A stretch of DNA of 64,000 nucleotides from Ardenticatenales bacterium (GCA_020853525.1 JADYYS010000039.1:76587-140586), one strand, 5' to 3'. Positions 19,540-46,836 are shown, numbered from the stretch's first letter. Program-made: numbers and translations. The notes: generated by a model not told the origin, from the letters alone.

Positions 19540-19548
19540 CGCGGCGGG

Positions 19549-20589: not shown

Positions 20590-20630
20590 CCTGTTCTCTC
20601 CGCCCGCCGCAGGCGTGGCAGTGGCCGCGG

Positions 20631-22415: not shown

Positions 22416-22486
22416 AGCGGTGCGCCCCGACCCGGTTTCCGAACGGATGCGCCGTCATTTGCCCGGGCGCACGGGCCGCCGGGCGG

Positions 22487-24646
22487 TCAACGTCCTGCCG
22501 TTGTGCCGCGGTTCTCGACGATGCCGAACGCTTCGATCCCGCGGAAGGACGGGCCGGTGCGCCGCACGTCGTCCGCCCCGAACGGCCGGGCATTGCGGAG
22601 CGCAGCGGCGAGATGGGCGGCCGACATCCGGGCCGGCGTCCAGCGCACGTCCTGGCGCACGACCTCGCCGGTCGTGCGGCAGTACTCGACCGCGACATTG
22701 TCGAGGCCGAACGCCATCGGGTTGGACCCGTTCGTCGTCGCGCCGAAGAAGATCTGCGCCGAGTTGAACCCATCGCGCTTGGCCCACAGATCCTTGAGGT
22801 CGACCGAGAGCGGCACCCACTGGCCAAGCGGCAGCAGCTGGCCGCCGACGGGCGAGTCCTCGCTCAACCACTGTGCCGCCTGATCCGTGGGCGCGTCGCC
22901 GACGACGCCGAGGAAGAACTTGTCGGCGTTGTCGCCGTTGCCCCGCGTCTCGTTGCCGAGCATGCCGAGCGCCAGCTTGATCTGAACGGACGCGATGTCC
23001 TCGAGCGGCAGCGTCTCGATCTTGCCGGAGTTCACCAAGATGTCCTCGGCGTTGTCGTAACCACCCAGGTCGATCGCGAAGCGGCTCTGGAACCCCGGCG
23101 TGCGGAGCAGCTCATGGCCGTTGAGAGCGCGGCCCGACCAGCCTTCGCCCCCGAGTTCGAAATCGCCGTTGACGACCGGATTCTGGCAATTGGCAGGCAG
23201 CGTCGGCACGGCGCTCGGCGTCGGCCCGGGACCGCTGTTGCCCGTCACCTCGGCCACCTCGTCCGCCCACGCCACCGCCTCGCCCCGCAGGAACACGGCC
23301 ACCCTGAAGCGCCCGGGTTCGAGCGCCGACCCGTCGGCCGCATTCACGCATTCGGACAGGAAGCCTGAGGCGGCCGTGGTCTTCGTCGTCGGGTTGAGGC
23401 GCTCGTTGCCGTCCGGCAGGATGATCTTCTGCCACCTGCCCGCCACGTCCTCGTACCACTGCACGGACATCAGGGTGTCGACGGGCAACCCGGTCCAACG
23501 CTGGGCCGAACACAGCTGAAAGATGCGGCCGAAACGCGTGCCCTGGCCGACGAGCGTGCCGTCGTTCAGGACGTTCGTCCCGAATCCCACCACCACGCCG
23601 CCGGGCAATGCCGTCGGTTGGGACGGTGCCATGATGTCCTTGTCGACGTTGTTCACGGCGATCGGGAGGTACGCGCGCGACGAACCGTCCGGCGTCGCGG
23701 GCGGCGGTGTGGCCTCCGACGCCGGCGTCTCGCCCGGCGCCGGCGTTTCGCGCAGCCGCGTGGCCGAAGGCGTCACACCCGGCTCGAGCGTGGCGGTCGG
23801 CACGGAGGAAGAGAGTCCCTCGATCGTCACGTTGTCGATCAGCGAGCCGGTGTGCGTGCCCGTCGGGGTTGCGTCCTCCACGCGGAAGTAGATCCGCGCC
23901 GCCGGCAGGCCGGCGGCAAACGGGAACTTGAGCGGATCCTGCAGCGAGAGCCAGCGCTTGCGGAGATCCGTGCCGTCCCCCGACCGGTAGTTCAAGGAAT
24001 AGCACCGCAACTCCGTCGGCACCGCGGTGCTGGCACAGACCCTGAACGACAGGACGACCTCGTTCGTGCCGTTGGGCAGGAAGCCGACCGGGCCATCGAG
24101 GTAGAGCAGCAGGTTCACCTGCACGCCGCCGTCGAAGTCCGTCGCGTCGAACGGCCCGTAGACGAGATCGGTGGCCACCGGCTGATCGTAGTTCGAGCCC
24201 GGCGACAGGCTGGCGCCAAGCCGGCCGCCGCCGATCGACCACGGCGCTTTCAGCCCGCCCCCCGGCCGCCCCGGTGCGGGCGCGGCGAGGAGCACGTCCT
24301 GGTTGCCCCAGGTGTAGTTCTCTTGCTGACCTTGCGCCACCCGCAAGTCGTAGGTCGTCCAACCCTCGGGCGGGAAGTCGCCTTCGAAGTCCTCTTCCAC
24401 CACGGGCACGGTGCCCTGTTGGAGGGACTGCGGCCGCACGGCAAGGGGTCGATGATCGACCGACCGGCCGCCGCCGTCCTCGATTGACACGAGCCCCACC
24501 GAAGCCTCTTCGACGATCATTGCCGCGGCCGGTGCCGCCGTGAACACGTCCGACCGATCGGCACGCGCCGCCGGCGCGCCCCCTTGCAGCGCCCACATCC
24601 CCGCGACGACCGCACCGAGCACCGCCGCTCCCTCGCGCATCCTCAT
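22487..24646 (-). CDS. large secreted protein with two jelly-roll (MAM/CBM4_9-like) domains
   Basis: C-terminal 719 aa of ORF 22487..26014. The ATG at 24646 is preceded by GGGGAGGAG and starts the signal peptide MRMREGAAVLGAVVAGMWALQGGAPAARA. Domains are EEDFEGDFPPEGW...GSLIDNVTIEGL and NGDFELGGEGW...GLDNVAVEYC, separated by a Pro/Thr linker. Confidence 0.6.
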   Translation of the reverse strand: MRMREGAAVLGAVVAGMWALQGGAPAARADRSDVFTAAPAAAMIVEEASVGLVSIEDGGGRSVDHRPLAVRPQSLQQGTVPVVEEDFEGDFPPEGWTTYDLRVAQGQQENYTWGNQDVLLAAPAPGRPGGGLKAPWSIGGGRLGASLSPGSNYDQPVATDLVYGPFDATDFDGGVQVNLLLYLDGPVGFLPNGTNEVVLSFRVCASTAVPTELRCYSLNYRSGDGTDLRKRWLSLQDPLKFPFAAGLPAARIYFRVEDATPTGTHTGSLIDNVTIEGLSSSVPTATLEPGVTPSATRLRETPAPGETPASEATPPPATPDGSSRAYLPIAVNNVDKDIMAPSQPTALPGGVVVGFGTNVLNDGTLVGQGTRFGRIFQLCSAQRWTGLPVDTLMSVQWYEDVAGRWQKIILPDGNERLNPTTKTTAASGFLSECVNAADGSALEPGRFRVAVFLRGEAVAWADEVAEVTGNSGPGPTPSAVPTLPANCQNPVVNGDFELGGEGWSGRALNGHELLRTPGFQSRFAIDLGGYDNAEDILVNSGKIETLPLEDIASVQIKLALGMLGNETRGNGDNADKFFLGVVGDAPTDQAAQWLSEDSPVGGQLLPLGQWVPLSVDLKDLWAKRDGFNSAQIFFGATTNGSNPMAFGLDNVAVEYCRTTGEVVRQDVRWTPARMSAAHLAAALRNARPFGADDVRRTGPSFRGIEAFGIVENRGTTAGR

Positions 24647-24765
24647 GACAAGTCTCCTCCCCATCATCCGCGCAAGGCGGCCATGACCAGCGGGCGACAG
24701 TCTAGCACACGCCCTTCGGGCGGCGCCAGCGCTCTGTCGCGGCAGCGAGAAAGCCGAACCGAATC

Positions 24766-25956
24766 TCAGGGGGAGCGGCGCAGGAACCCGTATGGCAGGT
24801 AGATCCGGTGTTCCGGCGTGACGAGAACCGTAGGCGTTGCCGTCGATGTCGTCGGCGTCGCCGTGGTCGGACCGACCGTCGATGTCGGTTCCAACGTTGC
24901 CGTCGGCGCGTCCGTGACGGTGCCGACGACGGTCGGCGGCGGCGGGAGCACGAACGTCCCGGTAGCCGTCGCCGTGGCGGTGGCCGTCCGGCGGTCGGGC
25001 GTGGCCACGGACGTCGGCGGCGTGCTGGGCGGCGAGCCCGTCCGGGTGGGCGTCGCGGTCGGCGGCGCGACGGTGCCGGTCGGGGTGCGCGTCACGGTCG
25101 GCGTGCCGGAAGGCGCTCCGGTCGGTGAACCCGTCGGGCCGGCGGTGGCGGTGGCGGCCGTCGGCATGGGTGTGCCGGTGCGCGTGGCGCTCGGCGACGG
25201 CAACGCCGTGTGGGTTGCGCTGACGGTGGGCGTGGGCGTGGCGGTCGGCGCGGCGGTTGTGGCCGCGCCGGTCGTGGTGGGCGGCGGCGCATCCGACAGG
25301 CCGTGGATGACGACGCGGTCGACGAACGCACCCTGGTGCGGCGTCTCGAAATCGCGGTCGCGGAAGCGGAAGACGACGAACGCCTCCTCTTGCCCGCCGA
25401 CGAGTGGGAACTGGAGCTTCGGCTCGAAGTAGTTCCAGTCGATCTGCAGCACGCCGACTGAGAAGCAATCGATACCGCCGGGTGAGCCGGGGTTGGTGAC
25501 GCAGACCTGGAAGTCCGTCTCGCGGTGCAGGTCGAGCTTGAAGTACGTCGCCACCTGCAGCCCGTCCTCGAACGGTCGGGTGTCGATCGGCCCGAACATC
25601 AGGTCGCTCTCCGACGGGCCGGCGTACGTGCCGCCGCACGCCAGGCCGCCGCCCGCGGTGCCGCCGCCGACCGACCAGACGCTGGCGCTGCCGCCGCCGG
25701 AGGGCGCCGTGCACGTCGTCCGTGCCCATACGTACTGTCCGGGCGGCGTCATGTTGTCCTGGACATACCAGTCCGGCGGCGGGAACGCGCCCTCGAAGCC
25801 TTGGTCCTCGATCAGCGTGGCGATCGTGACGTTGCCGGCGACGTTGCCGCCGGCGCCGTACGCCGCACCGCACGCCAGCACGAGCGCCGCCAGGCCGGCC
25901 AGTGCGGAAGGACGGATGGTGATGGTTGGCCGGAGCGAACCGGATTCGCGCGACAT
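24766..25956 (-). CDS. secreted protein with MAM/CBM4_9-like jelly-roll domain, long Thr/Pro/Ala linker and C-terminal RIYLPYGFLRR tag
   Basis: Frame of ORF 24766..26091. The ATG at 25956 follows GGAGG and starts the signal peptide MSRESGSLRPTITIRPSALAGLAALVLACGAAYGA. The domain EDQGFEGAFPPPDW...GAFVDRVVIHGL is paralogous to those in the 22487 and 18346 genes. Confidence 0.6.
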   Translation of the reverse strand: MSRESGSLRPTITIRPSALAGLAALVLACGAAYGAGGNVAGNVTIATLIEDQGFEGAFPPPDWYVQDNMTPPGQYVWARTTCTAPSGGGSASVWSVGGGTAGGGLACGGTYAGPSESDLMFGPIDTRPFEDGLQVATYFKLDLHRETDFQVCVTNPGSPGGIDCFSVGVLQIDWNYFEPKLQFPLVGGQEEAFVVFRFRDRDFETPHQGAFVDRVVIHGLSDAPPPTTTGAATTAAPTATPTPTVSATHTALPSPSATRTGTPMPTAATATAGPTGSPTGAPSGTPTVTRTPTGTVAPPTATPTRTGSPPSTPPTSVATPDRRTATATATATGTFVLPPPPTVVGTVTDAPTATLEPTSTVGPTTATPTTSTATPTVLVTPEHRIYLPYGFLRRSP

Positions 25957-26056
25957 CGAAGCCTCCAATCGTTCGGTTAACATTCGCCACGGCCCGAGCC
26001 GTGCGACGTGGCACGGTTCGGGTGGCACGGTTCGGGCGGCACTGCGGTCCGGCGCG

Positions 26057-27481
26057 TCATCGCTGGCCGCCGGTCGGCAGGACGATCTCATACTTGAGCG
26101 GCCGGAGGTAGGTCTGACGCAACGGCTCGCCGCTCAGCCGCTGGCCGCCGACGAGCACGAGCTGCTGCCGCGCGAGCACCGCCAGCCCGGCGCCTCGGTC
26201 CGGCGTGTAGCCGCGGACGACCGCGAACTCGGACCACATGCCGCGCTCGAGGTCGTAGGCCAGCGTACCGATGTCGAGGTGGGTGCTCCAGCCGCCGCCA
26301 ACGACGTACAACCGCTCGCCCGACACGTTGGCGACGGCAAGCGCGTGGCCCGCGCGCGCGTCGGGCAGCGGCGCGGCGGTCTCATCCCATCGATCGGCGC
26401 TCGGCTCGAACGGGCGGAACACCCAGTGGTTGTTCTCCGGCTTGCCGCCGGGGCTCCGGCCGCCGACCACGTGGATCCGCCCTTCGAAGGCCGCTGCCGC
26501 CAGGTCGGCCCGCGGCCGCAGCAGCCGATCGGGCTCGACGGTCCAGGCGTCCGTACTCCAGTCGTAGCGCAGGATCGCATCCGTCGCGCTGGATGGATCG
26601 TCGTCGGTGCGGCCGCCGAAGAGGTAGACCTGACCGTCGAGCATCGCCAGACCGTAGCCGCAGACGGCGCGGCCGGCCGGCAGCGGCGCGGCGGTCCGCC
26701 ATGTGTCGGTGCGCGGATCGAAGATCTCGACGACGCCGGTCGCCCGCCCATCGGCCGCGCAGCCGCCCGGCACGATGATCTTGCCCTGTACGGCCACCCC
26801 CGCCACGTCGCGCACCGCAGTCGGTTTCGAGGCGCGCACCCGCCAGTCGAGCCCGCCGCCGCCGGCATACTGCAGCGTCGTGCTCACCAGGCGGCCGCCG
26901 TCCGTCGCCCCGGCGATGACGAACAGGTCGGCGCCCGCGGCAACGGCCGCCAGCCCGGTGCGTGCCTCGGGCAGCTGTCGGCCGAGGACCCAGTCCTGTG
27001 GCGCCGGCGCCGGCGCGGTCGGCGGAGGGGTCGGGGTCGCGGTGCCGTGTGTCAGACGCCACGTGGCGGCGCCGAGGATGGCCAGCACGGTCAGCGCTGC
27101 GCCGCCGAGCGTGAGCATGACGGTCCGCCGCGCCCGCTGACGGGTGCGCGAGAGCTCCTCGGCCAGACGCGCCGCCGCACCGCCGTCGCTGCGGCGCACG
27201 TCTTCGTCGCCGCCGCCGCCATCCGGGCTGCCGTCGCTTGGGTCGCCGAGCGCGATCAGCCCGGTGTCGAGAGCCCGCCGCATCGCCTCGGTCCGGTTGG
27301 CCGTACCGAGCTTGGCGTTGATGTTCGTCAGGTGCTTCTTGACCGTCGCCTCGGAGATCGTGCGGGCGTGCGCGATCTCGCGGTTCGTCGCGCCGGTGGC
27401 GACGAGCCGGAGGATCTCGAGCTCGGTATCCGATAGGGCGGCCGCCGGCGAGGCGGCGGTCGGCGCTTGGGGGTCGGCCAT
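26057..27481 (-). CDS. one-component membrane regulator: N-terminal LuxR/FixJ-type HTH, single TM, extracytoplasmic Kelch-repeat beta-propeller
   Basis: C-terminal 474 aa of ORF 26057..28060, with ATG at 27481. The HTH is LSDTELEILRLVATGATNREIAHARTISEATVKKHLTNINAKLG. The TM is VMLTLGGAALTVLAILGAATW. Repeated Kelch-like blades follow (…LFVIAG…KIIVPGG…VYLFGG…IHVVGG…LYVVGG…LVLVGG). Confidence 0.6.
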   Translation of the reverse strand: MADPQAPTAASPAAALSDTELEILRLVATGATNREIAHARTISEATVKKHLTNINAKLGTANRTEAMRRALDTGLIALGDPSDGSPDGGGGDEDVRRSDGGAAARLAEELSRTRQRARRTVMLTLGGAALTVLAILGAATWRLTHGTATPTPPPTAPAPAPQDWVLGRQLPEARTGLAAVAAGADLFVIAGATDGGRLVSTTLQYAGGGGLDWRVRASKPTAVRDVAGVAVQGKIIVPGGCAADGRATGVVEIFDPRTDTWRTAAPLPAGRAVCGYGLAMLDGQVYLFGGRTDDDPSSATDAILRYDWSTDAWTVEPDRLLRPRADLAAAAFEGRIHVVGGRSPGGKPENNHWVFRPFEPSADRWDETAAPLPDARAGHALAVANVSGERLYVVGGGWSTHLDIGTLAYDLERGMWSEFAVVRGYTPDRGAGLAVLARQQLVLVGGQRLSGEPLRQTYLRPLKYEIVLPTGGQR

Positions 27482-27488
27482 CCGGCGA

Positions 27489-28604
27489 TTATAGCATCCG
27501 GGTCCGACCGCTCTCTCTGCCGCGGTCGTGTCGATCGCCGATGCGCGCGCCGCGCTTCGTGCCGATGGACACCGCGAACCGTGCCGGCGCCCGTCGGCCG
27601 CGCAGCCGCGCCGTGAGCGGCCGCAGCGCCCACCGGACGTCGACGTACGGCCGCGCGTGCCGAAAGTCCAGCCCGATGGTCGCGCCGATCCGCTCGAGCT
27701 CGCCGGCGACGAGGAACTCGCGGCTGCCCTGCGCGGTGGATGGATAGCCGTAGCGCGCCGCGAACGCCGCGGCGCGCTCGGCCACCATCTGCACCCCGCT
27801 CGCGTGCCGCGCGTAGATCGGGCTGTCGACGACGACGACCCGGCCACCGGGCCGCACGGCACGGGCCGCCTCGGCCAGCGTCGCCGCCGGATCGACGGCG
27901 TAGTGCAGGCTGGCGCTGAAGACGACGAGATCCGCGGCGCCGTCCGCGACGGGCAGGCGGTCGGCATGGGCGACGGCGCGGACGAATCGTCGACCCAGGC
28001 CGCGCGCGACGAGATCGGCCGCGTACGGTTCGCCCGCCCCCAGCCCGTCGCCCGCATCATCGCTCACGTCGACGGCCAGCACGGCAGCGCCGCCAACCGC
28101 AAGCCGCCACGCCAGCCAGCCCGTGCCGGCACCGACGTCGATGACCCGCCCGGGCATGCCGCCGGCCAGCACCGCGCGGCAGAACGTGCGGTAGCTTGCG
28201 GCGCGGATCCGCCACTGCCAGGCCAGCGGCGTCGTCGACAGCGCGTCGGGCAGCGCGAACCGCTCCGCGGCCGTCATCGCTGCACGGCCCTCGGCGCGCC
28301 GCACGCCGGTGTACTCGGCCAGGAAGTCCGCGAGCAGGGCCGCATCCGTGTCGCAGAGGAAGCGCCAGATGCCGTCCCGACACGGCCACCGCGCGCCGCA
28401 TGCGGCGCAGCGGACCGCGGCGACGGCACCGGAGGCGGAATGGGCGTCGGCAAGGGCATCGGCATCCGCGTCATCCGGGTCCGATTCCACGGAGGCCGTG
28501 GACTCCGGCAATTTGCCGAGCGGGTGCCCGCAGGCCGGACAGCGCATCGCCCAGCCGACCGCATCCATGCCGGCCGCCGGTCCGTGCGCGTCCGCCGACG
28601 TCAT
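27489..28604 (-). CDS. class I SAM-dependent methyltransferase with N-terminal zinc-ribbon (CPACG...CAACG)
   Basis: C-terminal 371 aa of ORF 27489..29702. The ATG at 28604 overlaps the upstream gene stop as ATGA. SAM motif I is VIDVGAGTGWLA. Confidence 0.75.
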   Translation of the reverse strand: MTSADAHGPAAGMDAVGWAMRCPACGHPLGKLPESTASVESDPDDADADALADAHSASGAVAAVRCAACGARWPCRDGIWRFLCDTDAALLADFLAEYTGVRRAEGRAAMTAAERFALPDALSTTPLAWQWRIRAASYRTFCRAVLAGGMPGRVIDVGAGTGWLAWRLAVGGAAVLAVDVSDDAGDGLGAGEPYAADLVARGLGRRFVRAVAHADRLPVADGAADLVVFSASLHYAVDPAATLAEAARAVRPGGRVVVVDSPIYARHASGVQMVAERAAAFAARYGYPSTAQGSREFLVAGELERIGATIGLDFRHARPYVDVRWALRPLTARLRGRRAPARFAVSIGTKRGARIGDRHDRGRESGRTRML

Positions 28605-29584
28605 CGCGCGCGCCGCAGCACGACGGCGACGTGGTCGGCCCACAGCGCCGCCGTCGGCAGCCGGCTGGCTGCGGCTTCGGCGGTCGCCCAGGCGCGCCAG
28701 AGCCACGGTCGATCGAATGTCCCGCCCCGCGGCACGGCCCAGCTGGGCGGGACGACCACGCCGATCGGCACGACGCGGACGAGCTTCCACGCCGGGCCGA
28801 GACCGCCGGCCACGGCGCGTGGCGAGCGATACCAGACCGGCCAGCGCCCGGTGCCGAGATCGGCCGAAGCAAGGCCGCGCCAGCGCCGCGTCGCCCGCCG
28901 GACGTCCCCGCGCGCCAGGCCGAGGATGGTCTCCCAGGCGCAGCCGGGGGGCATCACGACGGCGACGAAGCACCCGCCCGGTCGTACGAGGGCCGCCAGC
29001 GCCGCTCCGAGCGGGGCGAGGTCGCCGATACAGTTCAGCACGCCGAAGTCGGCCAGGGCGCCGGCGTAGGGCGAACGATCGGCCGGGCGACGGTTCGCCG
29101 GCGGATCGGGCCGCGAGACGCCCACCGGCCACGTCGACGGATCTCCGACGTCGGCGACGTGGACGGCGACGCTGCCGACGCCGTTGTCGGTCATGGCCGC
29201 TGCGACGGCAGCGGCGTCGCGCGCCACGGCCACCATCTGCGGCGCAACGTCGAGCGCCACGACGTCGATTCCGCGGGCGGCCAGGTGGAGGGCGTCGACG
29301 CCGGTGCCGCAGCCGAGGTCGAGGACGCGGTCGGCGCCGGCGAAGACCTCGTCGGCGACGCGCCATACGGCTTGCCGGACGATCCGGCCGGACGGGTGGT
29401 CCGAGAACACCTCGTCGTAGCGGGACGCGAGAACGTCGAAGGCGGCCGCCAAGGGCGATCCCGACGGCAATGGGGCCGTCGGCCGCTCGTCCGTCACCAC
29501 CGCCGCGCTCACGGCCGGCGCGCCCCGTCGACCGGCCGGTCGTTCCAGCGCATACCCCAGCGGCTCCACTCGGCCCTGAGCCAT
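28601..29584 (-). CDS. class I SAM-dependent methyltransferase (paralog of preceding gene)
   Basis: ORF 28601..29584. Motif I is VLDLGCGTGVDALHLA. The more probable start is GTG at 29512, forming a GTGA overlap with the stop of the upstream radical SAM gene. Confidence 0.75.
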   Translation of the reverse strand: MAQGRVEPLGYALERPAGRRGAPAVSAAVVTDERPTAPLPSGSPLAAAFDVLASRYDEVFSDHPSGRIVRQAVWRVADEVFAGADRVLDLGCGTGVDALHLAARGIDVVALDVAPQMVAVARDAAAVAAAMTDNGVGSVAVHVADVGDPSTWPVGVSRPDPPANRRPADRSPYAGALADFGVLNCIGDLAPLGAALAALVRPGGCFVAVVMPPGCAWETILGLARGDVRRATRRWRGLASADLGTGRWPVWYRSPRAVAGGLGPAWKLVRVVPIGVVVPPSWAVPRGGTFDRPWLWRAWATAEAAASRLPTAALWADHVAVVLRRAR

Positions 29585-31089
29585 GCGCGGGCGATCGGGA
29601 GGAGGGCGTGCGGGCGGTCGCGGCGCAGACGCGCGAGCGCGACGGCATGGCGCAGGCGGCGGGTGGCGTGGCGGTAGTAGCGCGGGCCGGGGCGGCCGGC
29701 AACGTGGTGGTCGCGGTCCGTGGCGGCCGCCCAGTCGGCGGGCGGCGTCACGCGGTCGGCGACGGCGTCGAAGTACGGCGTGCCCTTGATCGGGTAGGCG
29801 ACGGTCGTGAGGAAGATGTCGGGGTCCGTCCGGCGCACGAAGTCGACGGTGGCCTCGATGTCGGCCGTCGTCTCGCCGTCATAGCCCCACATCAGGAACA
29901 TCCCGACCGCGATGCCTGCCGCCTTGAGCCAGGCGGTGGCCTGCGCCACCTCGGCCACGGAAACGCCGCGCTCCATCGCGTCCAGCACGCGCTGTGAGCC
30001 GCTCTCGCTGCCGATCCAGATTCGAAAGGCGCCCATCTCCCGCAGGACCTCGACGGCGGCGGGCGACAGTCGGTCGGCGCGGGTGATGCACTCGAACGGG
30101 CGCTTCAAGCCGCGCCGGCCGAGCTCGGCGCCGTACTCGGACAGCCAGCGCGGGTGGATCGTGAAGACGTCGTCGGCATACCAGAGCATGTCCGGGTTCC
30201 AGCGCTCGATCAGGTGGGCCACCTCGTCGGCCACATCCGCGGGCGAGCGGCGGGCGTGGTGGTGGCCGAAGACGCTGTGGCTGCACCAGCGGCACTTGTA
30301 CGGGCACCCGCGGGCGCAGATCAGGTTCAGCGAGCCGGCACCGTGGTGCGTCCGCCAGCACGTGAGGTAGGCATCGATGTCGATCGCCTCGCGGTCCGGC
30401 CACGGCACGCCGTCGAGGGCGGTGAGCAATGGGCGCGGCGGAGTGCGCACGACCGCGCCGGCCTCGTCGCGGAAGGCGATGCCGGCGATGTCGTGCAGGC
30501 GGTGCGGACCGTGGCGGGCGAGTGCGGGCAGCAGCTCGGCCATCGTCACCTCGCCCTCGCCGATGACGATCACGTCGGCGCCGTTGGCCAGGTAGGCCTC
30601 CGGCCAGTTCGCGCTCTCCGGCCCGCCCAGCACGACGGTGAAGCCATGCGCCTTGGCATGGCGCGTCAGGTCGAGCACGCTCGCACGGGTCGTAAGGTTG
30701 GTGTACAGCCCGAGCACGGGCGCTTCGCGGGCCGCCAGACGGGCATGGGCCGTCGCGCGCGTGGCGAACGTCGTGTCCTGCACGCCGACGGTGAATCCGG
30801 CGCGCTTGAGGTACGCGCTGACATAGAGCAGGCCGAGCGGCGCGTACGGCTTCATCACGTGCTGCTCGTGCGCGTCCTCGCCCAGGAAGTAGCTGTGCGA
30901 CAGGAGGACGTCCAACCGGCGGGCCTCCGGAATTGCGGCGGCCGGCCATGGCACGAGCGATGTTCGGAGCGTGTCGGCCGGGGCGAGTGTGGGAATGGTA
31001 GCGCAACGCGGGGTCCGGGTCCGCTCGGTCGCGGACGGATCGGACCACGGGTTCAGCCGTCGTGCGATCGACTGACCACGGGGCGGCAC
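29509..31089 (-). CDS. B12-binding domain-containing radical SAM protein (class B rSAM)
   Basis: ORF 29509..31089 with a GTG start. An N-terminal cobalamin-binding Rossmann-like region precedes CPYKCRWC (CxxxCxxC) and IWIGSESGSQRVLDAM. Confidence 0.8.
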   Translation of the reverse strand: MPPRGQSIARRLNPWSDPSATERTRTPRCATIPTLAPADTLRTSLVPWPAAAIPEARRLDVLLSHSYFLGEDAHEQHVMKPYAPLGLLYVSAYLKRAGFTVGVQDTTFATRATAHARLAAREAPVLGLYTNLTTRASVLDLTRHAKAHGFTVVLGGPESANWPEAYLANGADVIVIGEGEVTMAELLPALARHGPHRLHDIAGIAFRDEAGAVVRTPPRPLLTALDGVPWPDREAIDIDAYLTCWRTHHGAGSLNLICARGCPYKCRWCSHSVFGHHHARRSPADVADEVAHLIERWNPDMLWYADDVFTIHPRWLSEYGAELGRRGLKRPFECITRADRLSPAAVEVLREMGAFRIWIGSESGSQRVLDAMERGVSVAEVAQATAWLKAAGIAVGMFLMWGYDGETTADIEATVDFVRRTDPDIFLTTVAYPIKGTPYFDAVADRVTPPADWAAATDRDHHVAGRPGPRYYRHATRRLRHAVALARLRRDRPHALLPIARAWLRAEWSRWGMRWNDRPVDGARRP

Positions 31090-31105
31090 GACGTCTCGGC
31101 CTCCG

Positions 31106-32692
31106 TCACCCCGCCGACGCCGTCAGATCCGGCGGCGCGGAGGGCGGCCGCACCGTCGGCCGTGTCGGCGCCGCGTTGCGGGCGACCGCGGCCTCGGCGG
31201 CGAGAACGTCCCACGCGGCCATCGCCGCGTCCAGCTCGGCGTGCGCGACGGCACGGGCGGACGGCGCGGCCGCATCGCCGGCCGCGTCGGCGCGGGCGAC
31301 GGAGTGGCGCGCGTCGAGTTCGCGGTGCAGCTGGGCGTGCAGTGTGCGATAGAACCGGGTCGTGAACGTGCCTTGGAAGAGCATCGCCAGGTCCATGCTG
31401 TCCTGCCAGTGGCCATCGCCGGCCAGCTCGTCCGCCACGCGGTGGTGGAAGGGCGTGCCGGGCAGCGGGTAGCTGACCGAGACGCCGATCGCGTCGGGCA
31501 CGACGGCGCGCACGAGGGCGGCGGTGGCCTCGACGTCGGCCCACTCCTCGCCGGGATAGCCGAGCTGAAGGAAGAAGGCGACGCGGATGCCGCGGGCGCG
31601 CAGGCGCGCGGCGGCGGCCGGAACGTCGGCGGCGCGGATGCCCTTGTCCATCGCGTCCAGCACGGGCTGGGAGCCGCTTTCGACGCCGAGCCAGACCTCG
31701 ACGCAGCCGGCGCGCGCCAGGCCGTCGGCGGCGGCATCGCTGATCAGGTCGACGCGGCTTTGGATCGTGAACGGCAGGTCGGCGCCGCGCGCGGCGACGG
31801 CCTCGCCGAAGGCCGCCGTCCATTCGGGGCGCAGGCCGAAGATGTCGTCGGCGAACCAGACGTGGTCCGGCGCGTGCTCGCGCTTGAGCGCCGCCAGCTC
31901 GTCGGCGACGGCGTCCGGCGTGCGCATCGCGTAGCGCTGGCCCCAGATCGGTTTGGCGCACCAGTTGCAGTGGAACGGGCAGCCGCGCGTGCTGGCGGCG
32001 TTGAGAGACCAGTGGCCGTGCGCCGCTCGCCAGACGGCGCGGTAGGCGTCGAGGTCGACGAGATCGCGGGCCGGCGGCGGAAAGCGGTCGGGGATGCGTT
32101 CCGTCGGGCGGGGCGGGGTGCGGGCGATGCCGCCGCCGACGCCGGCGAGCACGAGGCCGGGCACGGCGGACAGGTCCGGGCGAACGGCGTCGTGCCGCGT
32201 GGACCGGCGATCGACTTCGGGCGCCGTCGGATCGGTGTGGCCGAGGAGCACGCGCACCGCTTCGACGATCGTCCAGTCGGCCTCACCGTAGGCCACCGCC
32301 GCCGCGCCGGCGTCGAGAAAGCGCTGCGGTGCGTCGCTGGCGTCGGAGCCGGCGACGAGCGTCGGCAGGCCGCGGTCCGCCGCCAGGGCGACCATCCGGA
32401 GCGCGGCATCGCGCATGACGGCCAGGCACATCTTGGAATAGAAGTTGAAGCTGTCCTCGAACAGGACGACGAGCCGCGGGCGATGGGCGTCCAGCGCGTC
32501 CTCGAACACTTCCGGGCCCGGGGCGATCATCGCATCGAACAGCGCGACGCTCCACCCCGCGTCCCGGACGGCTGCCGCGGCGTACAGCGTGCCGAGGGGC
32601 GGGTACGGACGCCGGAGCGCGGCCTGCTTGGGGTCGAGCGCCATGAACAGCGCGTGCCCGAACAGGACATCGACGCCGCCGGCGGTGTTCAT
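31106..32692 (-). CDS. B12-binding domain-containing radical SAM protein (paralog)
   Basis: ORF 31106..32692. Contains CPFHCNWC and VWLGVESGSQPVLDAM. It is the same architecture as the adjacent gene, with a 16-nt gap between them. Confidence 0.8.
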   Translation of the reverse strand: MNTAGGVDVLFGHALFMALDPKQAALRRPYPPLGTLYAAAAVRDAGWSVALFDAMIAPGPEVFEDALDAHRPRLVVLFEDSFNFYSKMCLAVMRDAALRMVALAADRGLPTLVAGSDASDAPQRFLDAGAAAVAYGEADWTIVEAVRVLLGHTDPTAPEVDRRSTRHDAVRPDLSAVPGLVLAGVGGGIARTPPRPTERIPDRFPPPARDLVDLDAYRAVWRAAHGHWSLNAASTRGCPFHCNWCAKPIWGQRYAMRTPDAVADELAALKREHAPDHVWFADDIFGLRPEWTAAFGEAVAARGADLPFTIQSRVDLISDAAADGLARAGCVEVWLGVESGSQPVLDAMDKGIRAADVPAAAARLRARGIRVAFFLQLGYPGEEWADVEATAALVRAVVPDAIGVSVSYPLPGTPFHHRVADELAGDGHWQDSMDLAMLFQGTFTTRFYRTLHAQLHRELDARHSVARADAAGDAAAPSARAVAHAELDAAMAAWDVLAAEAAVARNAAPTRPTVRPPSAPPDLTASAG

Positions 32693-32716
32693 CGCGTCGG
32701 CCGGCGCCCCGCGGGC

Positions 32717-34045
32717 CTACGGTGCGGCACGGACATCGGCATTGCGAAGCGAGACGGGCAGGAAGACCCGCCCGCCCTCGGTGGACGGCGTCGTCGGCGA
32801 CGGGACGGGGGTGGCGGAGGACGGCGTCGGCACGGCGGTCGTGGCCGTCGGGCCGGGCGGGGTGACGGTCGGCGCCGTGTCGGGCGAGAGGTCGACCGCG
32901 AAGCCGTCGGACAGGTACCGCACGCCGTTGCCCTCGAGGCGCAGGCCGCCGTACACGAGGACGCGATCGCCCGCCGCATCCCACACCGCGCTCTGACCGC
33001 TGCGCGCGCTCGGCGCCGTGCCGGCCGGCGTGATCGCCCGCCAGCGCGGGGCGGTCGGGTCGCGATAGTCGAGCGCCCAGACGTCGGACATCTCGCCGAG
33101 GACGGGCGAGTAGCCGCCGTACAGGATCGCCCAGCCGGTGGATCCGGCGAACGTCAGCGTTGCGCCGCTCCGGGCGCTCGGGCCGGCGCCGGCCTGCGCC
33201 GCGATGTCCGACCACGCACCGGGCGCATCGATCGCCGCGAGGTCGGCGCGCCAGAGATGGGTGGTGGGCGTGGCGTCCGGCCCCTGTCCGCCGAACGCGA
33301 CGAGGTGGCCGGAGCGGGGGTCGCGGTCGGCGGCCTGGAAGAGGAGCTGGAACGGCACGGCCGGCACGGACCGCCACTGGGCCGCGTTCAGGTCGTTCAC
33401 GTCCAGCGCCCACGTCGCGGTCATGATATCGCCCGAGCCGCTGAACTCGCCGCCGGCGGCGATGACGCGCCGGCGCGGCGCGTCGAAGGCCAGGAGCCCG
33501 TTCGCCAGCGGGAGGGACTGCACGTCGGCGATGCGCCGCCACGTGACCGCACCGCCGGTCGCCGGCCAAACGGCGCCGTACGTGGTGGCGCCCGTGCAGT
33601 GGCAGATCAGCAGCGCCGACGTCTCCGCGGCCCCGTCATCGGAGATGCGCACGGCGCGCGCGCCGACGAGACCCCGGCCGGACAGTCCGGACACGGGCCG
33701 GTCGCCGCTCTCGGCCAACGTCGTCCAGGCCTGCGCCGGCGCGAGCGCAAGCGACCGCAGCGCGTCCGGCGGCTGGAAATCGCCCTGCTCGCCGCCGATG
33801 AGCGTCATCGAACGGCCGTCGATCACCGCGCCGTGGCCGCCGAGGGCGCGATCGCCCGGGAGCGCCTGCCATGACACGCCGGCGAGGTCGTCGGTCTGCG
33901 CCTGAGCCGTGCCGACCGGGCGAGCGGCTACGAGGGCGACGATGACGGCGACGGCCAGCGCGAGCGCCTTGGCGAGGGGCGCGGCCGTCGAACGGGACGG
34001 GCGGCGGACGCGGGGCGACTGCGCAATGGGATGCGGATCGATCAC
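32717..34045 (-). CDS. secreted Kelch-repeat beta-propeller protein with Pro/Thr linker and C-terminal RVFLPVSLRN tag
   Basis: C-terminal 442 aa of ORF 32717..34801. The GTG at 34045 is preceded by GGAGG with a 6-nt spacer and starts the signal peptide ...LAKALALAVAVIVALVAARPVGTAQAQT. Repeated propeller blades are present (…LIGGE…, …IAAGGE…, …VAFGGQ…, …ILYGGY…, …LVYGGL…). The stop lies 25 nt before the start of the downstream rSAM gene. Confidence 0.55.
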   Translation of the reverse strand: MIDPHPIAQSPRVRRPSRSTAAPLAKALALAVAVIVALVAARPVGTAQAQTDDLAGVSWQALPGDRALGGHGAVIDGRSMTLIGGEQGDFQPPDALRSLALAPAQAWTTLAESGDRPVSGLSGRGLVGARAVRISDDGAAETSALLICHCTGATTYGAVWPATGGAVTWRRIADVQSLPLANGLLAFDAPRRRVIAAGGEFSGSGDIMTATWALDVNDLNAAQWRSVPAVPFQLLFQAADRDPRSGHLVAFGGQGPDATPTTHLWRADLAAIDAPGAWSDIAAQAGAGPSARSGATLTFAGSTGWAILYGGYSPVLGEMSDVWALDYRDPTAPRWRAITPAGTAPSARSGQSAVWDAAGDRVLVYGGLRLEGNGVRYLSDGFAVDLSPDTAPTVTPPGPTATTAVPTPSSATPVPSPTTPSTEGGRVFLPVSLRNADVRAAP

Positions 34046-34294
34046 GAACGGCCTCCGGACATCGTGGCGCGGCGGGTGTGCCGGGCGCGGCGCATCCGGG
34101 CTGTCCCGGGCGCGGCGGTGGGGTTGCGGGGAGCCGCCACGCACCCGCAGGCGCATGTCGGGCCGGGGGCGGCGGGCGCGTCGATTGTAGGCGACGGGCC
34201 AGCCGGGTCGCAAGGGCGAACGCGGGCGGGAGGTGCGGCGGACCGCGCGGCGCGACATGGCGCTCGGGTGGGTCGGCGATGCGGGCGACCCATT

Positions 34295-34321
34295 GACGCC
34301 CGGCCCCAACGCCATACAATG
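34295..34321 (+). promoter_or_regulatory. candidate sigma70-type promoter (TTGACG-N15-TACAAT) upstream of CAP-domain gene
   Basis: Seen in the 445-nt divergent intergenic region. The hexamers are near-consensus. Confidence 0.45.
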
Positions 34322-34490
34322 GGCCGCGTTGTCGCCCCGGAAACGCGGCGGCCGGCCGCTCGGTAGGCAATCGGCGGTCGGCCAGACGGCTCCGCGATGG
34401 AGTTCGTCGGGAACGGGTGCGCGGTCCGCTTGGACGCGCCGCACCCTGGCCGCGTGGATGGGCAGCGATGCTTGCAGAGGAGCTGTGTTC

Positions 34491-35306
34491 ATGCGAAGCC
34501 GCATCCGGGCATGCGCTGCTTGCGTGCCGATGTTGAAGGTGTCCGCCGTCGCCGCCGTGTTCGCGTTCGCCGTCGCCGCCCCCCCCACCGCTCGCGCCGA
34601 CGAAGCGCCCGTCGAAGCGCCCGTCGAGTCGCCCGCTCCGGCAGCCGTCGACCCCGCCGCCGTCGAAGCCCCGTCCGCCGAGTCGCGGGCCGCCGCGGAC
34701 GCCCTATCCCCCGCCGCCGAATCCGCCCCCGCGCCCGAGCTCGCGCAGCCGGCGCCACCGGCCGAATGGACCGCGCCCGACCTCGGCGCCGTCCTGGCCA
34801 ACCCGGACTACGACGACCGCACGCGGCTCGAACTCGAGATCCTCCAGCGGGTGAACGGCGTGCGCGCCGAGCGCGGCCTCGGCCCGCTGCAGCTCGACGA
34901 CCGCCTCGTGGCGGCCGCTCGCCAGCACGCCGTCGACATGGCCTACCGCAACTTCTGCCGCCACCGCGGCTCGGACGGCTCGCTGGCCCGTGACCGGCTG
35001 CGCCGCAACGGGTATCCGTACAACAACTGGGCGGGCGAGAACATCCTGTGCGCGCGGCGCACGGCCGACGCCGCGCTGAAGTGGTGGATGAACTCGGCCC
35101 CGCACCGCGCCAACATCCTGCACGGGCACTTCACGCACATCGGCGTCGGGGTGAGCATGCTCGGCACGTACGGGCCGGACATGGTGCTCACGTTCGCGGC
35201 CGGCGACGGGCACACCGCCCTGCCCGGGGTGTTCGCGGCGCTGCGCGACGGCAACGTCGCCGGCTGGATCGCCTCGACGCGCGAGCCGGAGCAGCGGCCA
35301 CGTTAA
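34491..35306 (+). CDS. secreted CAP (SCP/PR-1-like) domain protein with Ala/Pro-rich N-terminal region
   Basis: Frame of ORF 34233..35306. The ATG at 34491 follows GAGGAG and starts the signal peptide MRSRIRACAACVPMLKVSAVAAVFAFAVAAPPTARA. CAP motifs are RVNGVRAERGLGPL...GENI...HRANILHGHFTHIGVGV. Confidence 0.75.
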   Translation: MRSRIRACAACVPMLKVSAVAAVFAFAVAAPPTARADEAPVEAPVESPAPAAVDPAAVEAPSAESRAAADALSPAAESAPAPELAQPAPPAEWTAPDLGAVLANPDYDDRTRLELEILQRVNGVRAERGLGPLQLDDRLVAAARQHAVDMAYRNFCRHRGSDGSLARDRLRRNGYPYNNWAGENILCARRTADAALKWWMNSAPHRANILHGHFTHIGVGVSMLGTYGPDMVLTFAAGDGHTALPGVFAALRDGNVAGWIASTREPEQRPR

Positions 35307-35311
35307 GGGCA

Positions 35312-36763
35312 GTGCTCGCCCGAGCCCATCGCACCGCCGCCATCGCCGTAGCGATGCCGGCCGTCGCCTTGGCCGTCGCCGTCGTCGGCGGCTCGGTCAT
35401 CGGCTGCGCGGCCGTCCGTCAACGCGCCATGCCCGCCGCTCCGACGCCGCGCGCACCCGGAACGGTCGGCTCCCCCGGCGAACGGCGCGACGTCGGGGGC
35501 ACAGACGACGTACGGACGACCGACGAGGTGCGGACGGCGGACGTGGCGGCGACGTCGGCCATGACGGCGTTGCTCCAGCCGACGGACGCAGCGACGGCCA
35601 TGGCCGTGGCGGCGGCAACCCGCACCCAATGGACGCCGTTCGATCCCGACGAGACCCATGTTTCGCTCGAAACGATCGCCACGGGCCTTGACGAGCCGGT
35701 GCACGCCACAGGCGACGGCGTCGATGGGCAGCGGTTGTACGTCGTCGAGAAGGCAGGGACGATCGAGATCGTCGACCTCGCGAGCGGCACCTTGGCGGAC
35801 CCGCCGTTCGTCGACCTGTCGGACCGAGTGAACAGCCGCGCGTCCGAGCAAGGTCTGCTGTCGGTGGCGTTCCATCCGGACTATGCCGCCAACGGACGTC
35901 TGTTCGTGAACTACACGCGCCGCGACGGCGCGACGGTGGTCAGCGAGCTGACCGCAGATGCCGACCGGCGGCGGGCCGATCCGGCCGGCGAGCGCGAGAT
36001 CCTCGTCGTCGACCAGCCGGCCGCGAATCACAACGGCGGCCAGAACGCGTTCGGGCCGGACGGCTACCTGTACGTCGGGATGGGCGATGGAGGCGGGAGC
36101 GGCGCCGGGAAGAATGCCCATGACCCGGCGTCGCTGCTGGGCAAGGTGCTGCGGCTCGACGTCGACGGCCCGCCGGGGGGCTACCGGGTGCCGGCCGACA
36201 ACCCGTTCGTCGCCGGCGACCACCTGCCCGAGGTCTGGGCGGTCGGCCTGCGGAACCCGTGGCGGCTCAGCTTCGACCGCGCCACGGGCGATCTGTTCAT
36301 CGCCGACGTCGGCGACAGCACGTACGAAGAGGTGAACTGGCAGCCGGCGGCGAGCCGCGGCGGCGAGGACTACGGCTGGCCGGACGTCGAGGGCGACCAC
36401 TGCCACAACGCCGCCGACGGCGCCGACGGCGCCGACGGCAGCCTGGCCGCCTGCGACCCCGACGGCCGCACGACTCGGCCGGTGGCCGAGTACCGCCACG
36501 ACGACGGCAACTGCTCGATCTCCGGCGGTCACGTCTACCGCGGCCGGCGCTACCCGGCGCTGGACGGCGTCTACATCTATGCCGACTACTGCAGCGGTCG
36601 CATCTGGGGCGCCTGGCGCGACGATCGTGGCCGGTGGCACGATGCGATGCTGACGGACAGCGACGCCGCGATCAGCGCGTTCGGGCTGGACGACGCGGGC
36701 GAGGTGTACGCATTGGATATGGCGGGGGGGGCCGTGCTGCGGGTGGTGGCGGACGGGCGGTAG
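35312..36763 (+). CDS. PQQ-dependent sugar dehydrogenase (soluble glucose/sorbosone dehydrogenase family), probable lipoprotein
   Basis: Frame of ORF 35048..36763 with GTG at 35312. A lipobox-like VIGC lies in the N-terminal hydrophobic segment. The family fold is VAFHPDYAANGRLFVNY...HNGG...DGYLYVGMGDGG. Confidence 0.65.
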   Translation: MLARAHRTAAIAVAMPAVALAVAVVGGSVIGCAAVRQRAMPAAPTPRAPGTVGSPGERRDVGGTDDVRTTDEVRTADVAATSAMTALLQPTDAATAMAVAAATRTQWTPFDPDETHVSLETIATGLDEPVHATGDGVDGQRLYVVEKAGTIEIVDLASGTLADPPFVDLSDRVNSRASEQGLLSVAFHPDYAANGRLFVNYTRRDGATVVSELTADADRRRADPAGEREILVVDQPAANHNGGQNAFGPDGYLYVGMGDGGGSGAGKNAHDPASLLGKVLRLDVDGPPGGYRVPADNPFVAGDHLPEVWAVGLRNPWRLSFDRATGDLFIADVGDSTYEEVNWQPAASRGGEDYGWPDVEGDHCHNAADGADGADGSLAACDPDGRTTRPVAEYRHDDGNCSISGGHVYRGRRYPALDGVYIYADYCSGRIWGAWRDDRGRWHDAMLTDSDAAISAFGLDDAGEVYALDMAGGAVLRVVADGR

Positions 36764-38084: not shown

Positions 38085-38288
38085 CCGGCGGCGGCGCGGT
38101 CGGGTTCGCGTCGCCGGCACGACCGCATCGCCAGCCTTGATCGACCCTCGTCCGCCGGATAAAGTGTGTTCGCCGCACATGGCATGCAATCGTATGCACC
38201 GGGATCGCCTCGCCCGACGCCGCTGCGTGCAGCCGGACGTGACCTCGCGTCGCCGGACATCCGATCACCCCCTTCCCCGGGAGCCCGC

Positions 38289-38975: not shown

Positions 38976-38979
38976 CGTG

Positions 38980-40002: not shown

Positions 40003-40006
40003 GGCG

Positions 40007-46614: not shown

Positions 46615-46756
46615 GTGCTTACCACTCCTGGCGGCGACGGACGAGGCGAACGGCGCCGCCGGCGAAGGCCACACGCAAAGGCCGCGCCGCGCCCGTCGTC
46701 GGGCGGGTCACGGCCAAGAAGGAGGCGCGTGGTCGCGAATGTAGGTGTTGCAGGCC

Positions 46757-46762: not shown

Positions 46763-46836
46763 GGCCACGCCTGCGCGCGGGGCGATTCTCGGGCGCCCGC
46801 GCTACCATACCCGCTCGACCTGCCGCGGAGCGCGCC

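Follow-up and report, generated by a model that had tools for sequence, protein, structure and literature searches.

A block of six successive minus-strand genes lies at positions 26057-34045 of a stretch of 64,000 nucleotides from an Ardenticatenales bacterium (GCA_020853525.1, JADYYS010000039.1:76587-140586); the whole stretch is here called the window, and positions are counted from its first letter. In the order of transcription the genes encode an exported Kelch protein, two radical S-adenosylmethionine (SAM) enzymes (rSAM1 and rSAM2), two class I SAM methyltransferases (MTA and MTB) and a regulator with a LuxR domain, a transmembrane (TM) segment and a Kelch propeller (LuxR-TM-Kelch, for short LuxR-Kelch). 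The block is best filed as an uncharacterised, widely conserved cassette that is anchored by rSAM1, occurs here in a minimal form and has a lineage-specific Kelch partner. It appears to work like a tailoring module made of class-B radical SAM enzymes and methyltransferases, and it scores below the cut-off of every named family that was scored.

The Gene Block and Its Transcription

The G+C content of the window is about 73%. Many open reading frames (ORFs) are therefore spurious, and the coding frames were picked by G+C at third codon positions (GC3). This GC3 frame analysis yields the six genes of the block. Together with Pfam, it bears out the genes and domains that had been listed in a preliminary description of this DNA. 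Their packing is tight. The stop of the Kelch gene (TAG 32719-17) and the ATG of rSAM1 (32692) are 24 nt apart, the stop of rSAM1 (TGA 31108-06) and a GTG at 31089 are 16 nt apart, both as read from the sequence, and the stop of MTB (TAA 27491-89) precedes the ATG of LuxR-Kelch (27481) by 7 nt. The GTG start of MTA overlaps the stop of rSAM2 (GTGA at 29512-29509), as does the ATG of MTB the stop of MTA (ATGA at 28604-28601). Both overlaps had been quoted in the preliminary description and are present in the sequence; the gap between MTB and LuxR-Kelch had been given as 8 nt and is to be corrected to 7. The rSAM1 protein is 100% identical to NCBI's MCC7019784.1, and its neighbouring proteins are MCC7019780-83.

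The start of rSAM2 is more likely TTG 30915, which predicts a protein of 468 aa, than GTG 31089. The TTG start is NCBI's call (MCC7019783.1, 468 aa), it has a GGAGG ribosome-binding site, and residue 1 of the resulting protein is the beginning of the alignment with the N-terminus of rSAM1. The GTG start adds 58 residues, which lie outside this alignment and outside NCBI's call. The spacer of 190 nt between rSAM1 and rSAM2 folds with the stability of shuffled sequence (z = 0.32) and has no match in Rfam.

Within 22000-35000 there are just two sigma70-like sites, where 0.3 are expected; the divergent region upstream of the Kelch gene contains both. The motif TTGnnn-N17/18-TAnAAT is kept upstream of the Kelch orthologue in four related loci (L004, L006, L089 and L005; the related loci are numbered with L throughout), and the GGAGG site with the GTG start at 34045 is kept in five genomes, i.e., those of the window, L004, L006, L089 and L090. 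The leader of the Kelch gene has no Rfam match, even at E ≤ 1, and the fold of an alignment of five leaders reveals no conserved structure. Since the genes from Kelch to MTB are packed behind one conserved sigma70-type promoter, they very likely form one predicted operon of five genes. The regulator is different. The extended -10 element TGnTATAAT is found before its gene and before the orthologues in four loci, leaderless in L004 and L089 too and with a leader in L092 and L093. Its conservation implies that the regulator is transcribed separately, and its position implies a leaderless mRNA; read-through from the five-gene operon is possible. The earlier proposal of one operon of six genes is thus weakened by a promoter that belongs to LuxR-Kelch and is conserved in five genomes; tight packing and co-transcription of the first five genes are supported by the short gaps and the shared promoter. 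Rfam, run at the gathering threshold over the whole window, found no riboswitch and, in particular, no cobalamin riboswitch.

The hexamer TATAAT is rare in this DNA. In 64 kb it occurs just four times, at 42058 (+), 46762 (-), 27493 (-) and 5476 (-), each time just upstream of a gene, and three of the four sites read TATAATCG. The hexamer at 27493 is part of the extended -10 element of LuxR-Kelch. It seems to be a reliable -10 marker in a genome of 73% G+C.

Table 1. Positions of the genes, signals and tails discussed in the text
Feature	Position	Strand	Remarks
Exported Kelch gene	32717-34045	-	First in transcription order
rSAM1	31106-32692	-	Second; anchor gene of the cassette
rSAM1-rSAM2 spacer, 190 nt	30916-31105	-	Exists only with the rSAM2 start at TTG 30915
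rSAM2	29509-30915	-	Third; with the alternative start GTG 31089: 29509-31089
MTA	28601-29512	-	Class I SAM methyltransferase; fourth
MTB	27489-28604	-	Class I SAM methyltransferase; fifth
LuxR-TM-Kelch regulator	26057-27481	-	Sixth
Sigma70-type promoter TTGCGA-N18-TACAAT	34184-34213	-	Upstream of the Kelch gene; leader ~130 nt
Extended -10 element TGCTATAAT	27488-27496	-	In the 3' end of MTB, 7 nt before the LuxR-Kelch ATG
Exported PT1	24766-25956	-	Syntenic neighbour, outside the cassette; no Pfam or NCBIfam match
Exported PT2	22487 to ~24667	-	Syntenic neighbour, outside the cassette; no Pfam or NCBIfam match
GH-like protein	20631-22454	-	Syntenic neighbour, outside the cassette
x[FY]LP tail of Kelch	32720-32770
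x[FY]LP tail of PT1	24769-24810
x[FY]LP tail of NHL protein	41950-41992
x[FY]LP motif of PT2	~23660		Internal

The Radical SAM Enzymes and the Methyltransferases

Both radical SAM enzymes score above the Pfam cut-offs for Radical_SAM (PF04055; 68.9 bits for rSAM1 and 72.7 for rSAM2, cut-off 29.5) and for the B12-binding domain (PF02310; 44.1 and 57.2 bits, cut-off 32.1). The [4Fe-4S] motif CX3CX2C reads CPFHCNWC in rSAM1, where it is invariant in 13 orthologues, and is aligned with CPYKCRWC in rSAM2. With 35% identity over 492 aa the two are true paralogues. The AlphaFold (AF2) model of rSAM1, with a predicted local distance difference test score (pLDDT) of 80, has a Rossmann-like N-domain of five strands in alpha/beta arrangement and a TIM-type core. 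Its nearest folds are MgmA/QCMT, TsrM, AprD4, OxsB, CysS and TokK, at about 20% identity and TM-scores of 0.52-0.64; MgmA/QCMT is the top match (E 2.9e-17). By sequence, the nearest solved proteins are AprD4 (PDB 6FD2), which is the best PDB match of rSAM1 (E 2.7e-16), and PDB 9CCB, which is the best or second-best match of both enzymes. The latter is MgmA/QCMT, the C-methyltransferase of a glutamine in methyl-coenzyme M reductase (PMC12931638). AprD4 neither binds cobalamin nor has methylase activity (PMC12931638). Because it has the same layout, a match to the B12-binding domain is no proof of cobalamin use. rSAM1 and rSAM2 are thus to be described as enzymes of class-B architecture that belong to no curated family and for which cobalamin use and methyl transfer are predicted. 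That class-B radical SAM enzymes next to class I methyltransferases make a tailoring-type module, as had been proposed, is supported by the Pfam domains.

The families that come to mind were checked with the hidden Markov models of NCBIfam, and neither enzyme reaches a curated cut-off. The best NCBIfam score is reached with BchE/BchQ/BchR (TIGR02026; 78 for rSAM1 and 127 for rSAM2, cut-off 481), and the window contains no bch genes. HpnR (59.5 and 76.1 against 650) and HpnJ (72.6 and 109.4 against 577.6) lack hopanoid genes nearby. For the P-methyltransferase PhpK (TIGR04479; 88.6 and 101.3 against 600) no Ppm gene was found, and for BzaD/BzaE (TIGR04385; 63.0 and 66.4 against 450) there are no bzaA/B or cobT neighbours. 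MgmA/QCMT itself (TIGR04014) is given 71.2 and 91.7 against 360. The model for the C-methyltransferases of PoyB/C type (TIGR03975), which act on ribosomally made peptides that are modified after translation (RiPPs), yields 49.7 and 66.5 against 281.85, ApyD 83-88 bits against 750, and the AprD4 family (NF033070) 66 and 44 against 500. The ladderane-type lipid enzymes (TIGR04072), although among the top weak matches with 87.8 and 97.0, have a cut-off of 360. With TIGR04295 and KedN5, too, both enzymes stay far under the cut-off. The earlier statement that the block matches no described pathway agrees with this outcome, every radical SAM model of NCBIfam scoring far under its cut-off. In the JGI data, homologues of rSAM1 carry the label "anaerobic Mg-protoporphyrin cyclase", an apparent over-annotation.

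The extreme C-terminus of the rSAM1 family, which follows a long helical region, bears a motif AP-T ... P-D-L that is conserved across phyla (about 31109-31170 in the window). It could serve to dock a partner protein.

Of the methyltransferases, MTA matches Methyltransf_25, _23 and _11 of Pfam and has VLDLGCGTG as motif I; it reaches no cut-off of NCBIfam. MTB matches Methyltransf_11 (50.3 bits), and its N-terminal segment has two CxxC pairs, CPAC ... CAAC, which resemble a zinc ribbon, zinc-ribbon models scoring 19-20 bits, under the Pfam cut-off. The two proteins have only motif I in common, and PDB searches with them gave generic matches only. In the same searches, by sequence and by fold, rSAM1 and rSAM2 are about equally far from all solved class-B enzymes and the exported Kelch is a generic propeller, so that no substrate is indicated.

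The Cassette in Other Genomes

Homologues of rSAM1 number in the thousands. Relatives are encoded in at least 572 of 600 scanned stretches, taken from one genome per GTDB species. The hosts are Chloroflexota, many Acidobacteriota, Acidimicrobiia, Planctomycetota and some Proteobacteria, from soil, peat and sludge or wastewater. Orthologues of rSAM1 are 45-79% identical; paralogues do not exceed 38%. Neighbours were identified by Pfam and NCBIfam and counted, approximately, in 55 loci of at least 16 kb. An rSAM2 orthologue of 50-75% identity lies directly downstream of rSAM1 in 42 of these 55 loci, and 40 have an MTA orthologue. An HprK-related P-loop protein (22 loci), a radical SAM/SPASM enzyme (20), an MTB orthologue and a GT4 glycosyltransferase (19 each), a PF14907 nucleotidyltransferase and a third methyltransferase, MTc (18 each), and an amidohydrolase of the guanine-deaminase/chlorohydrolase type (10) are the other recurrent partners. 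A single locus may contain up to six B12-radical SAM paralogues. None of the partners reaches an NCBIfam cut-off, which implies that the larger system is uncharacterised too.

The arrangement rSAM1-rSAM2-MTA(-MTB) is not a product of chance, because the genes are adjacent and co-directional in most related loci and in several phyla. The four enzyme genes of the window are, as judged from gene content, a trimmed version of an rSAM1-anchored cassette that is conserved across at least five phyla. The composition varies. In Acidimicrobiia the set is HprK-like, GT4, PF14907, GT4, rSAM1, sometimes MTA, and an MsbA-like exporter. L001 has Wzy_C and DUF2142 membrane proteins near the cassette, L087 phosphoglucomutase and a GT4, and in L092 a dTDP-sugar isomerase adjoins it. 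The representative L026 has a methyltransferase of the PrmA/MTS type (Pfam) with an NPPF amino-methyltransferase motif that was read from the sequence. A literature search on PF14907, on B12-radical SAM enzymes with HprK and nucleotidyltransferase, on Kelch with radical SAM and on the methylases of branched glycerol dialkyl glycerol tetraethers (GDGTs) yielded no description of the cassette.

The Two Kelch Proteins

The exported Kelch protein consists of an N-terminal signal or anchor helix, a Kelch beta-propeller (PF24681, 70.9 bits), a disordered linker rich in Pro and Thr and a C-terminal tail, RVFLPVSLRNADVRAAP. Residues 58-385 make up the propeller in the AF2 model, whose tail is disordered; pLDDT per block of the propeller is mostly 80-95, and 57-74 in four blocks. 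The family is small, with 28 matches and about nine orthologues, in which a CxC motif is invariant. Its fold neighbours are the peptide-binding Kelch domains of LZTR1 and KLHDC2/3 and the plant specifier proteins, not NanM or galactose oxidase, and neither Pfam nor NCBIfam reports a match to NanM/YjhT mutarotase.

LuxR-Kelch starts with a GerE/LuxR helix-turn-helix (HTH) domain (PF00196, 59.9 bits, residues 15-70), continues with one TM segment, TVMLTLGGAALTVLAILGAATW, and a Pro/Thr linker, and ends with an extracytoplasmic Kelch propeller (Kelch_1, 81.5 bits). The HTH of the GerE type is usually C-terminal; here it is N-terminal. Pfam detects no autoinducer-binding or receiver domain, which leaves the TM segment and the propeller as the sensor part. 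The architecture was matched 210 times in Chloroflexota. The protein is thus, by its predicted domains, a membrane one-component regulator of a type that recurs in this phylum. Its identification as a NanM/YjhT mutarotase was rejected (PF24996, 33.4 against 45; mutarotase models of NCBIfam, 23.5-33 against 243-416). The two Kelch domains are related distantly, with 27% identity over 209 aa.

How do these proteins relate to the cassette? In the loci of the order that contain them, five types can be distinguished. Type A (window, L004, L089, L094) has the order CAP(-), then Kelch-rSAM1-rSAM2-MTA-MTB-LuxRKelch-PT1-PT2-GH. In type B (L009, L090/091, L095, L088) the order is Kelch, MTc(-), amidohydrolase, rSAM1; L009 alone has the remaining genes, L088 and L095 are without them, and L090/091 stop at the contig edge. 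Type C (L092) is without the exported Kelch: MTc(-), amidohydrolase, rSAM1, rSAM2, MTA, MTB, SPASM, LuxRKelch, PT2, GH. Type D (L093) has cytC(-), then Kelch-LuxRKelch-PT-GH-S8, and no radical SAM or methyltransferase gene. In type E (L005, L096), where LuxRKelch is missing, Kelch and the four-gene cassette stand between unrelated flanks. In the sampled loci of every phylum other than that of the window, the cassette occurs without any Kelch gene. In L092 (4554-5977), which belongs to an Ardenticatenia relative, the rSAM2 orthologue is split into ORFs of 45 and 390 aa, by a frameshift or an assembly error.

Since types A to D share wider synteny, a link between Kelch and cassette is attested independently by type E only, and a metagenome scan with the Kelch profile found no new independent genomic context. 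The Kelch pair without enzymes (L093) and enzymes without Kelch (L092, other phyla) mean that exported Kelch, cassette and LuxR-Kelch are three separable units; every pairwise combination of them was seen. The preliminary description had described the module as bracketed by the two Kelch genes. The comparison speaks against an integral bracket, since L093, L092 and L005/L096 show the units apart. Nor is the combination unique, its core being a cut-down form of a cassette that is very widely distributed. Conservation of neighbourhood, which had been suggested as a check, applies to the four-enzyme core and not to the block of six genes as a coherent unit. The Kelch bracket is lineage-specific and separable, and a "Kelch-bracketed six-gene system" is not a coherent unit.

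Searches for a Substrate Gene

No precursor or scaffold gene had been noticed near the block, and the domain scans of the window and the small-ORF scan confirm this. Genes for polyketide synthases, nonribosomal peptide synthetases, aminoglycoside or RiPP-precursor scaffolds are not present near the block. A scan of the window from 10 to 50 kb, which did not use NHLP or Nif11 models, gave no credible small ORF of coding-type GC3. ORFs of 30-130 aa, when clustered across about 90 related loci, are not conserved beyond close relatives. The scanned proteins of the window and its relatives contain no match to a RiPP recognition element (RRE/PqqD), and the radical SAM/SPASM partner, with about 360 aa and its radical SAM domain predicted to begin at residue 54, is too short for a fused one. 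Glycosyltransferase, kinase and nucleotidyltransferase genes are missing from the window, which otherwise encodes housekeeping and exported proteins. An anti-phage defence system was considered and dismissed, PADLOC giving only weak, generic matches to radical SAM core, methyltransferase fold and HTH (E 1e-12 to 3e-4).

The exported proteins of this lineage have a peculiar C-terminus: a Pro/Thr-rich linker, then x-[IVA]-[FY]-L-P, then 5-14 residues, and no TM segment. Besides the Kelch tail given above, RIYLPYGFLRRSP and GVYLPWVGNEAAR are examples, each running to the stop. In all Kelch orthologues this x[FY]LP tail has the same position, and it is also found on S8 peptidases, PT1 and the NHL protein. 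It occurs in L005, L006, L007, L009 and L093 and is absent from the loci of Acidobacteria and Actinobacteria. That the FLP tail of Kelch is a dedicated core peptide was ruled out, as unrelated exported proteins share the tail and relatives outside the lineage are without it. It looks like a general tag of exported proteins, a candidate for an undescribed C-terminal sorting or processing tag; a literature search found no description of it as a sorting signal of Chloroflexi.

Possible Functions

What the cassette makes can be approached by analogy. Exported Pro/Thr-linker proteins or a cell-envelope component, the candidates named in the preliminary description, may be what is modified. The explanation that we favour, tentatively and with more doubt than confidence, is C- and O/N-methyl tailoring of a glycoconjugate that is made elsewhere in the genome. 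rSAM1 and rSAM2 would use [4Fe-4S]/SAM radical chemistry, and probably cobalamin, to methylate unactivated carbons or functionalise them in another way, and MTA and MTB would transfer methyl groups onto O or N atoms. The substrate would be encoded outside the operon; the likeliest one is a sugar-containing envelope or exported molecule, such as a glycan carried by a lipid or a protein, whose assembly would be encoded elsewhere in the genome. The exported Kelch propeller would be a lineage-specific accessory for binding or handling outside the cell, and LuxR-Kelch would be a neighbouring envelope sensor, not an obligate part of the system. A sugar-containing substrate is favoured because, methylases apart, the genes found most often beside rSAM1 in other phyla are of carbohydrate type, i.e., paired GT4s, HprK-like kinase, PF14907, Wzy_C/DUF2142, MsbA-like exporter, phosphoglucomutase and dTDP-sugar isomerase. 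A weaker hint is that AprD4, the best PDB match of rSAM1 by sequence, is a sugar diol-dehydratase.

A number of observations weigh against this explanation. The carbohydrate argument is one of guilt by association through a single orthologue, rSAM1, and crude ORF calling in high-GC loci makes the neighbour counts approximate. The window is without the glycosyltransferase, kinase and nucleotidyltransferase, and stand-alone cassettes without such neighbours are seen in L086, L087, L011 and L005. The characterised precedent for an HprK-like kinase with an uncharacterised nucleotidyl (NTP) transferase, PsmK/PsmN, acts on a peptide serine (PMC6993621). MgmA/QCMT, a C-methylase of a protein, is as close to rSAM1 as is AprD4, and the exported Kelch resembles the peptide-binding LZTR1 and KLHDC2/3, not NanM or galactose oxidase. 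The cobalamin step suffers from the example of AprD4, which has the B12-binding domain and binds none (PMC12931638).

Some of these points lead to proteins or peptides as substrates. The radical SAM enzymes would then C-methylate a ribosomal product before export and the methyltransferases would add N- or O-methyl groups, as in the case of MgmA/QCMT or PoyB/C; the co-translated Kelch protein, other exported proteins or an unlinked precursor peptide would be the clients. The genes for Kelch and rSAM1 indeed share a promoter, are 24 nt apart in the window and overlap in L005 and L089, and, with a single exception, every sampled lineage has its Kelch orthologue next to rSAM1. MgmA/QCMT ranks first among the fold matches and first or second among the PDB matches by sequence, and the HprK-like kinases, NTP transferases and radical SAM/SPASM enzymes of the relatives are of types known from RiPP pathways. 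Yet the RiPP models score poorly (TIGR03975, 50-67 bits against 282; ApyD, 83-88 against 750), RRE/PqqD domains and conserved small ORFs are missing from the scanned loci, hundreds of genomes have the cassette without any Kelch, L093 has Kelch without the cassette, and the FLP tail of Kelch is common to unrelated exported proteins. We consider this explanation improbable. Less probable still is a variant of it, in which the cassette would be a widespread post-translational system that attaches C-methyl and also O/N-methyl groups to proteins, folded or exported, and not to RiPP precursors, the client in this lineage being the Kelch propeller or the Pro/Thr-linker proteins. If true, it would be a bacterial counterpart, outside the methanogens, of the modifications of methyl-coenzyme M reductase.

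The glycoconjugate also has to compete with metabolites. The cassette might methylate a heterocycle or a nucleoside-like compound in a small-molecule or cofactor pathway, comparable to the synthesis of benzimidazole by BzaC-BzaD-BzaE. The bzaC-D-E layout comprises two B12-radical SAM paralogues and a class I methyltransferase, a resemblance that counts for such a pathway. The fuller cassette, moreover, has the amidohydrolase and extra methyltransferases, and the L026 representative the NPPF-motif methyltransferase of PrmA/MTS type. BzaD, however, gives 63-66 bits where 450 are required, no cofactor genes such as CobT or a ThiC-like gene are found nearby, Rfam sees no cobalamin riboswitch in the window, and the cassette of the window has no amidohydrolase; such a pathway is in our opinion unlikely. 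With a membrane lipid as substrate, no nearby substrate gene would be needed. Here the radical SAM enzymes would methylate or cyclise alkyl or isoprenoid chains, as do Gmm and GrsA/GrsB with archaeal tetraethers and HpnP/HpnR with hopanoids. Stand-alone cassettes fit an action on a common cell constituent, Acidobacteriota and Planctomycetota figure prominently among the hosts, TIGR04072 is among the top weak matches (88-97 bits), and relatives combine several B12-radical SAM enzymes with a SPASM enzyme, as do the archaeal Gms/Gmm/Grs clusters (PMC11214058). Still, TIGR04072, HpnR and HpnJ all remain far under their cut-offs, no gene of the tes, mss, shc or plsC type is found in the window or among the recurrent neighbours, and these neighbours are glycosyltransferases, kinases and nucleotidyltransferases. 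A lipid substrate is also doubtful, to about the same degree.

A different matter is whether the Kelch proteins have anything to do with the enzymes. The cassette may have been inserted into an older unit of Kelch, LuxR-Kelch and exported proteins and may borrow the Kelch promoter, with the Kelch proteins functionally unconnected to it. This concerns the Kelch bracket only and is compatible with any substrate; we deem it almost as probable as its opposite. L093 has cytC, then Kelch, LuxR-Kelch, PT and GH without the cassette, and L092 the cassette without Kelch. Most loci with both share a genome-scale order of CAP, GSDH, ACAD, cytC and NHL. LuxR-Kelch has its own promoter wherever this was checked, and the content of the cassette between the two Kelch genes differs between types A and B. 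A functional tie, in contrast, is suggested by L005 and L096, which keep Kelch and the four-gene cassette in unrelated flanks, with stop/start overlap and the same promoter motif, and by translational coupling in L089.

Comparison with Known Systems

The class-B tailoring methylases TokK/ThnK, CysS, GenK and PoyB/C have the same layout as rSAM1 and rSAM2, with a Rossmann-type B12-binding domain at the N-terminus and a CX3CX2C radical SAM core after it, and tandem paralogues beside class I methyltransferases; TokK and CysS are fold matches with TM-scores of 0.52-0.59. The enzymes of the window, however, are only about 20% identical to any solved member, reach no curated model and are not accompanied by scaffold genes. 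MgmA/QCMT (PDB 9CCB), the best fold match, acts on a folded protein and has no dedicated precursor gene; in contrast, the identity is 20%, a context of methanogenesis is missing and the host is a Chloroflexi bacterium. AprD4 (PDB 6FD2) shares the two-domain architecture, and its sugar substrate fits the carbohydrate-type neighbours in other phyla, but it is neither a cobalamin enzyme nor a methylase (PMC12931638), and there is no aminoglycoside cluster here.

Two further systems resemble the fuller cassette of the relatives more than that of the window. Archaeal GDGT clusters contain several B12-radical SAM enzymes (Gmm, Grs) and the SPASM enzyme Gms, act on a common cell constituent and have no substrate gene in the cluster (PMC11214058). 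By gene content the fuller cassette has this composition, but tes and mss are missing nearby and the window's version is without a SPASM enzyme. The lasso peptide pseudomycoidin is phosphorylated and, in its phosphorylated state, decorated with hexoses by the PsmK/PsmN pair (PMC6993621). An HprK-related kinase and an uncharacterised nucleotidyltransferase recur among the relatives of the cassette, a likeness by description. Unlike there, lasso cyclase, protease and precursor are missing, the kinase and nucleotidyltransferase genes are absent from the window, and the models HprK_rel_A and HprK_rel_B score 27-41 bits against a cut-off of 200.

The Surrounding Region

The genes for PT1, PT2 and the GH-like protein travel with LuxR-Kelch in L004, L089, L092 and L093, the last of which lacks the cassette. 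PT1 and PT2 have an N-terminal domain in common, about 190 aa long (30-33% identity over 199 aa), without a match in Pfam or NCBIfam. The region is rich in genes for exported proteins; on the other side of the block, 34491-36763 (+) and 38163-41995 (+) encode a protein with a CAP domain, a glucose/sorbosone dehydrogenase of the PQQ type, a cytochrome c of the dihaem type and a protein with NHL repeats. The order of these genes is kept even at 59% rSAM1 identity (L089); synteny alone is therefore weak evidence for function in this group. Four stretches of more than 1 kb are without a clean gene call (11119-12398, 19540-20630, 46708-47755 and 49742-51549). Within the first, at 11309-12094, minus-strand pieces have GC3 of 0.95-0.97 and are spread over different frames, which suggests a frameshifted gene or an assembly error.

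Significance

Class-B radical SAM enzymes catalyse some of the hardest methylations in biology, and their substrates are known for a small fraction. Identification of the product of the present cassette would annotate hundreds to thousands of genes at once. The first reading is to be corrected in that the Kelch bracket is a neighbour of the system and not the key to it. The compact operon of Ardenticatenales, its promoters defined and without additional paralogues, lends itself as a minimal set to heterologous expression. The hosts belong to abundant, mostly uncultured phyla of soil, peat and wastewater, and through the cassette a new modification by methylation, of an envelope glycan, a lipid or a protein, could come to light in Acidobacteriota and Chloroflexota.

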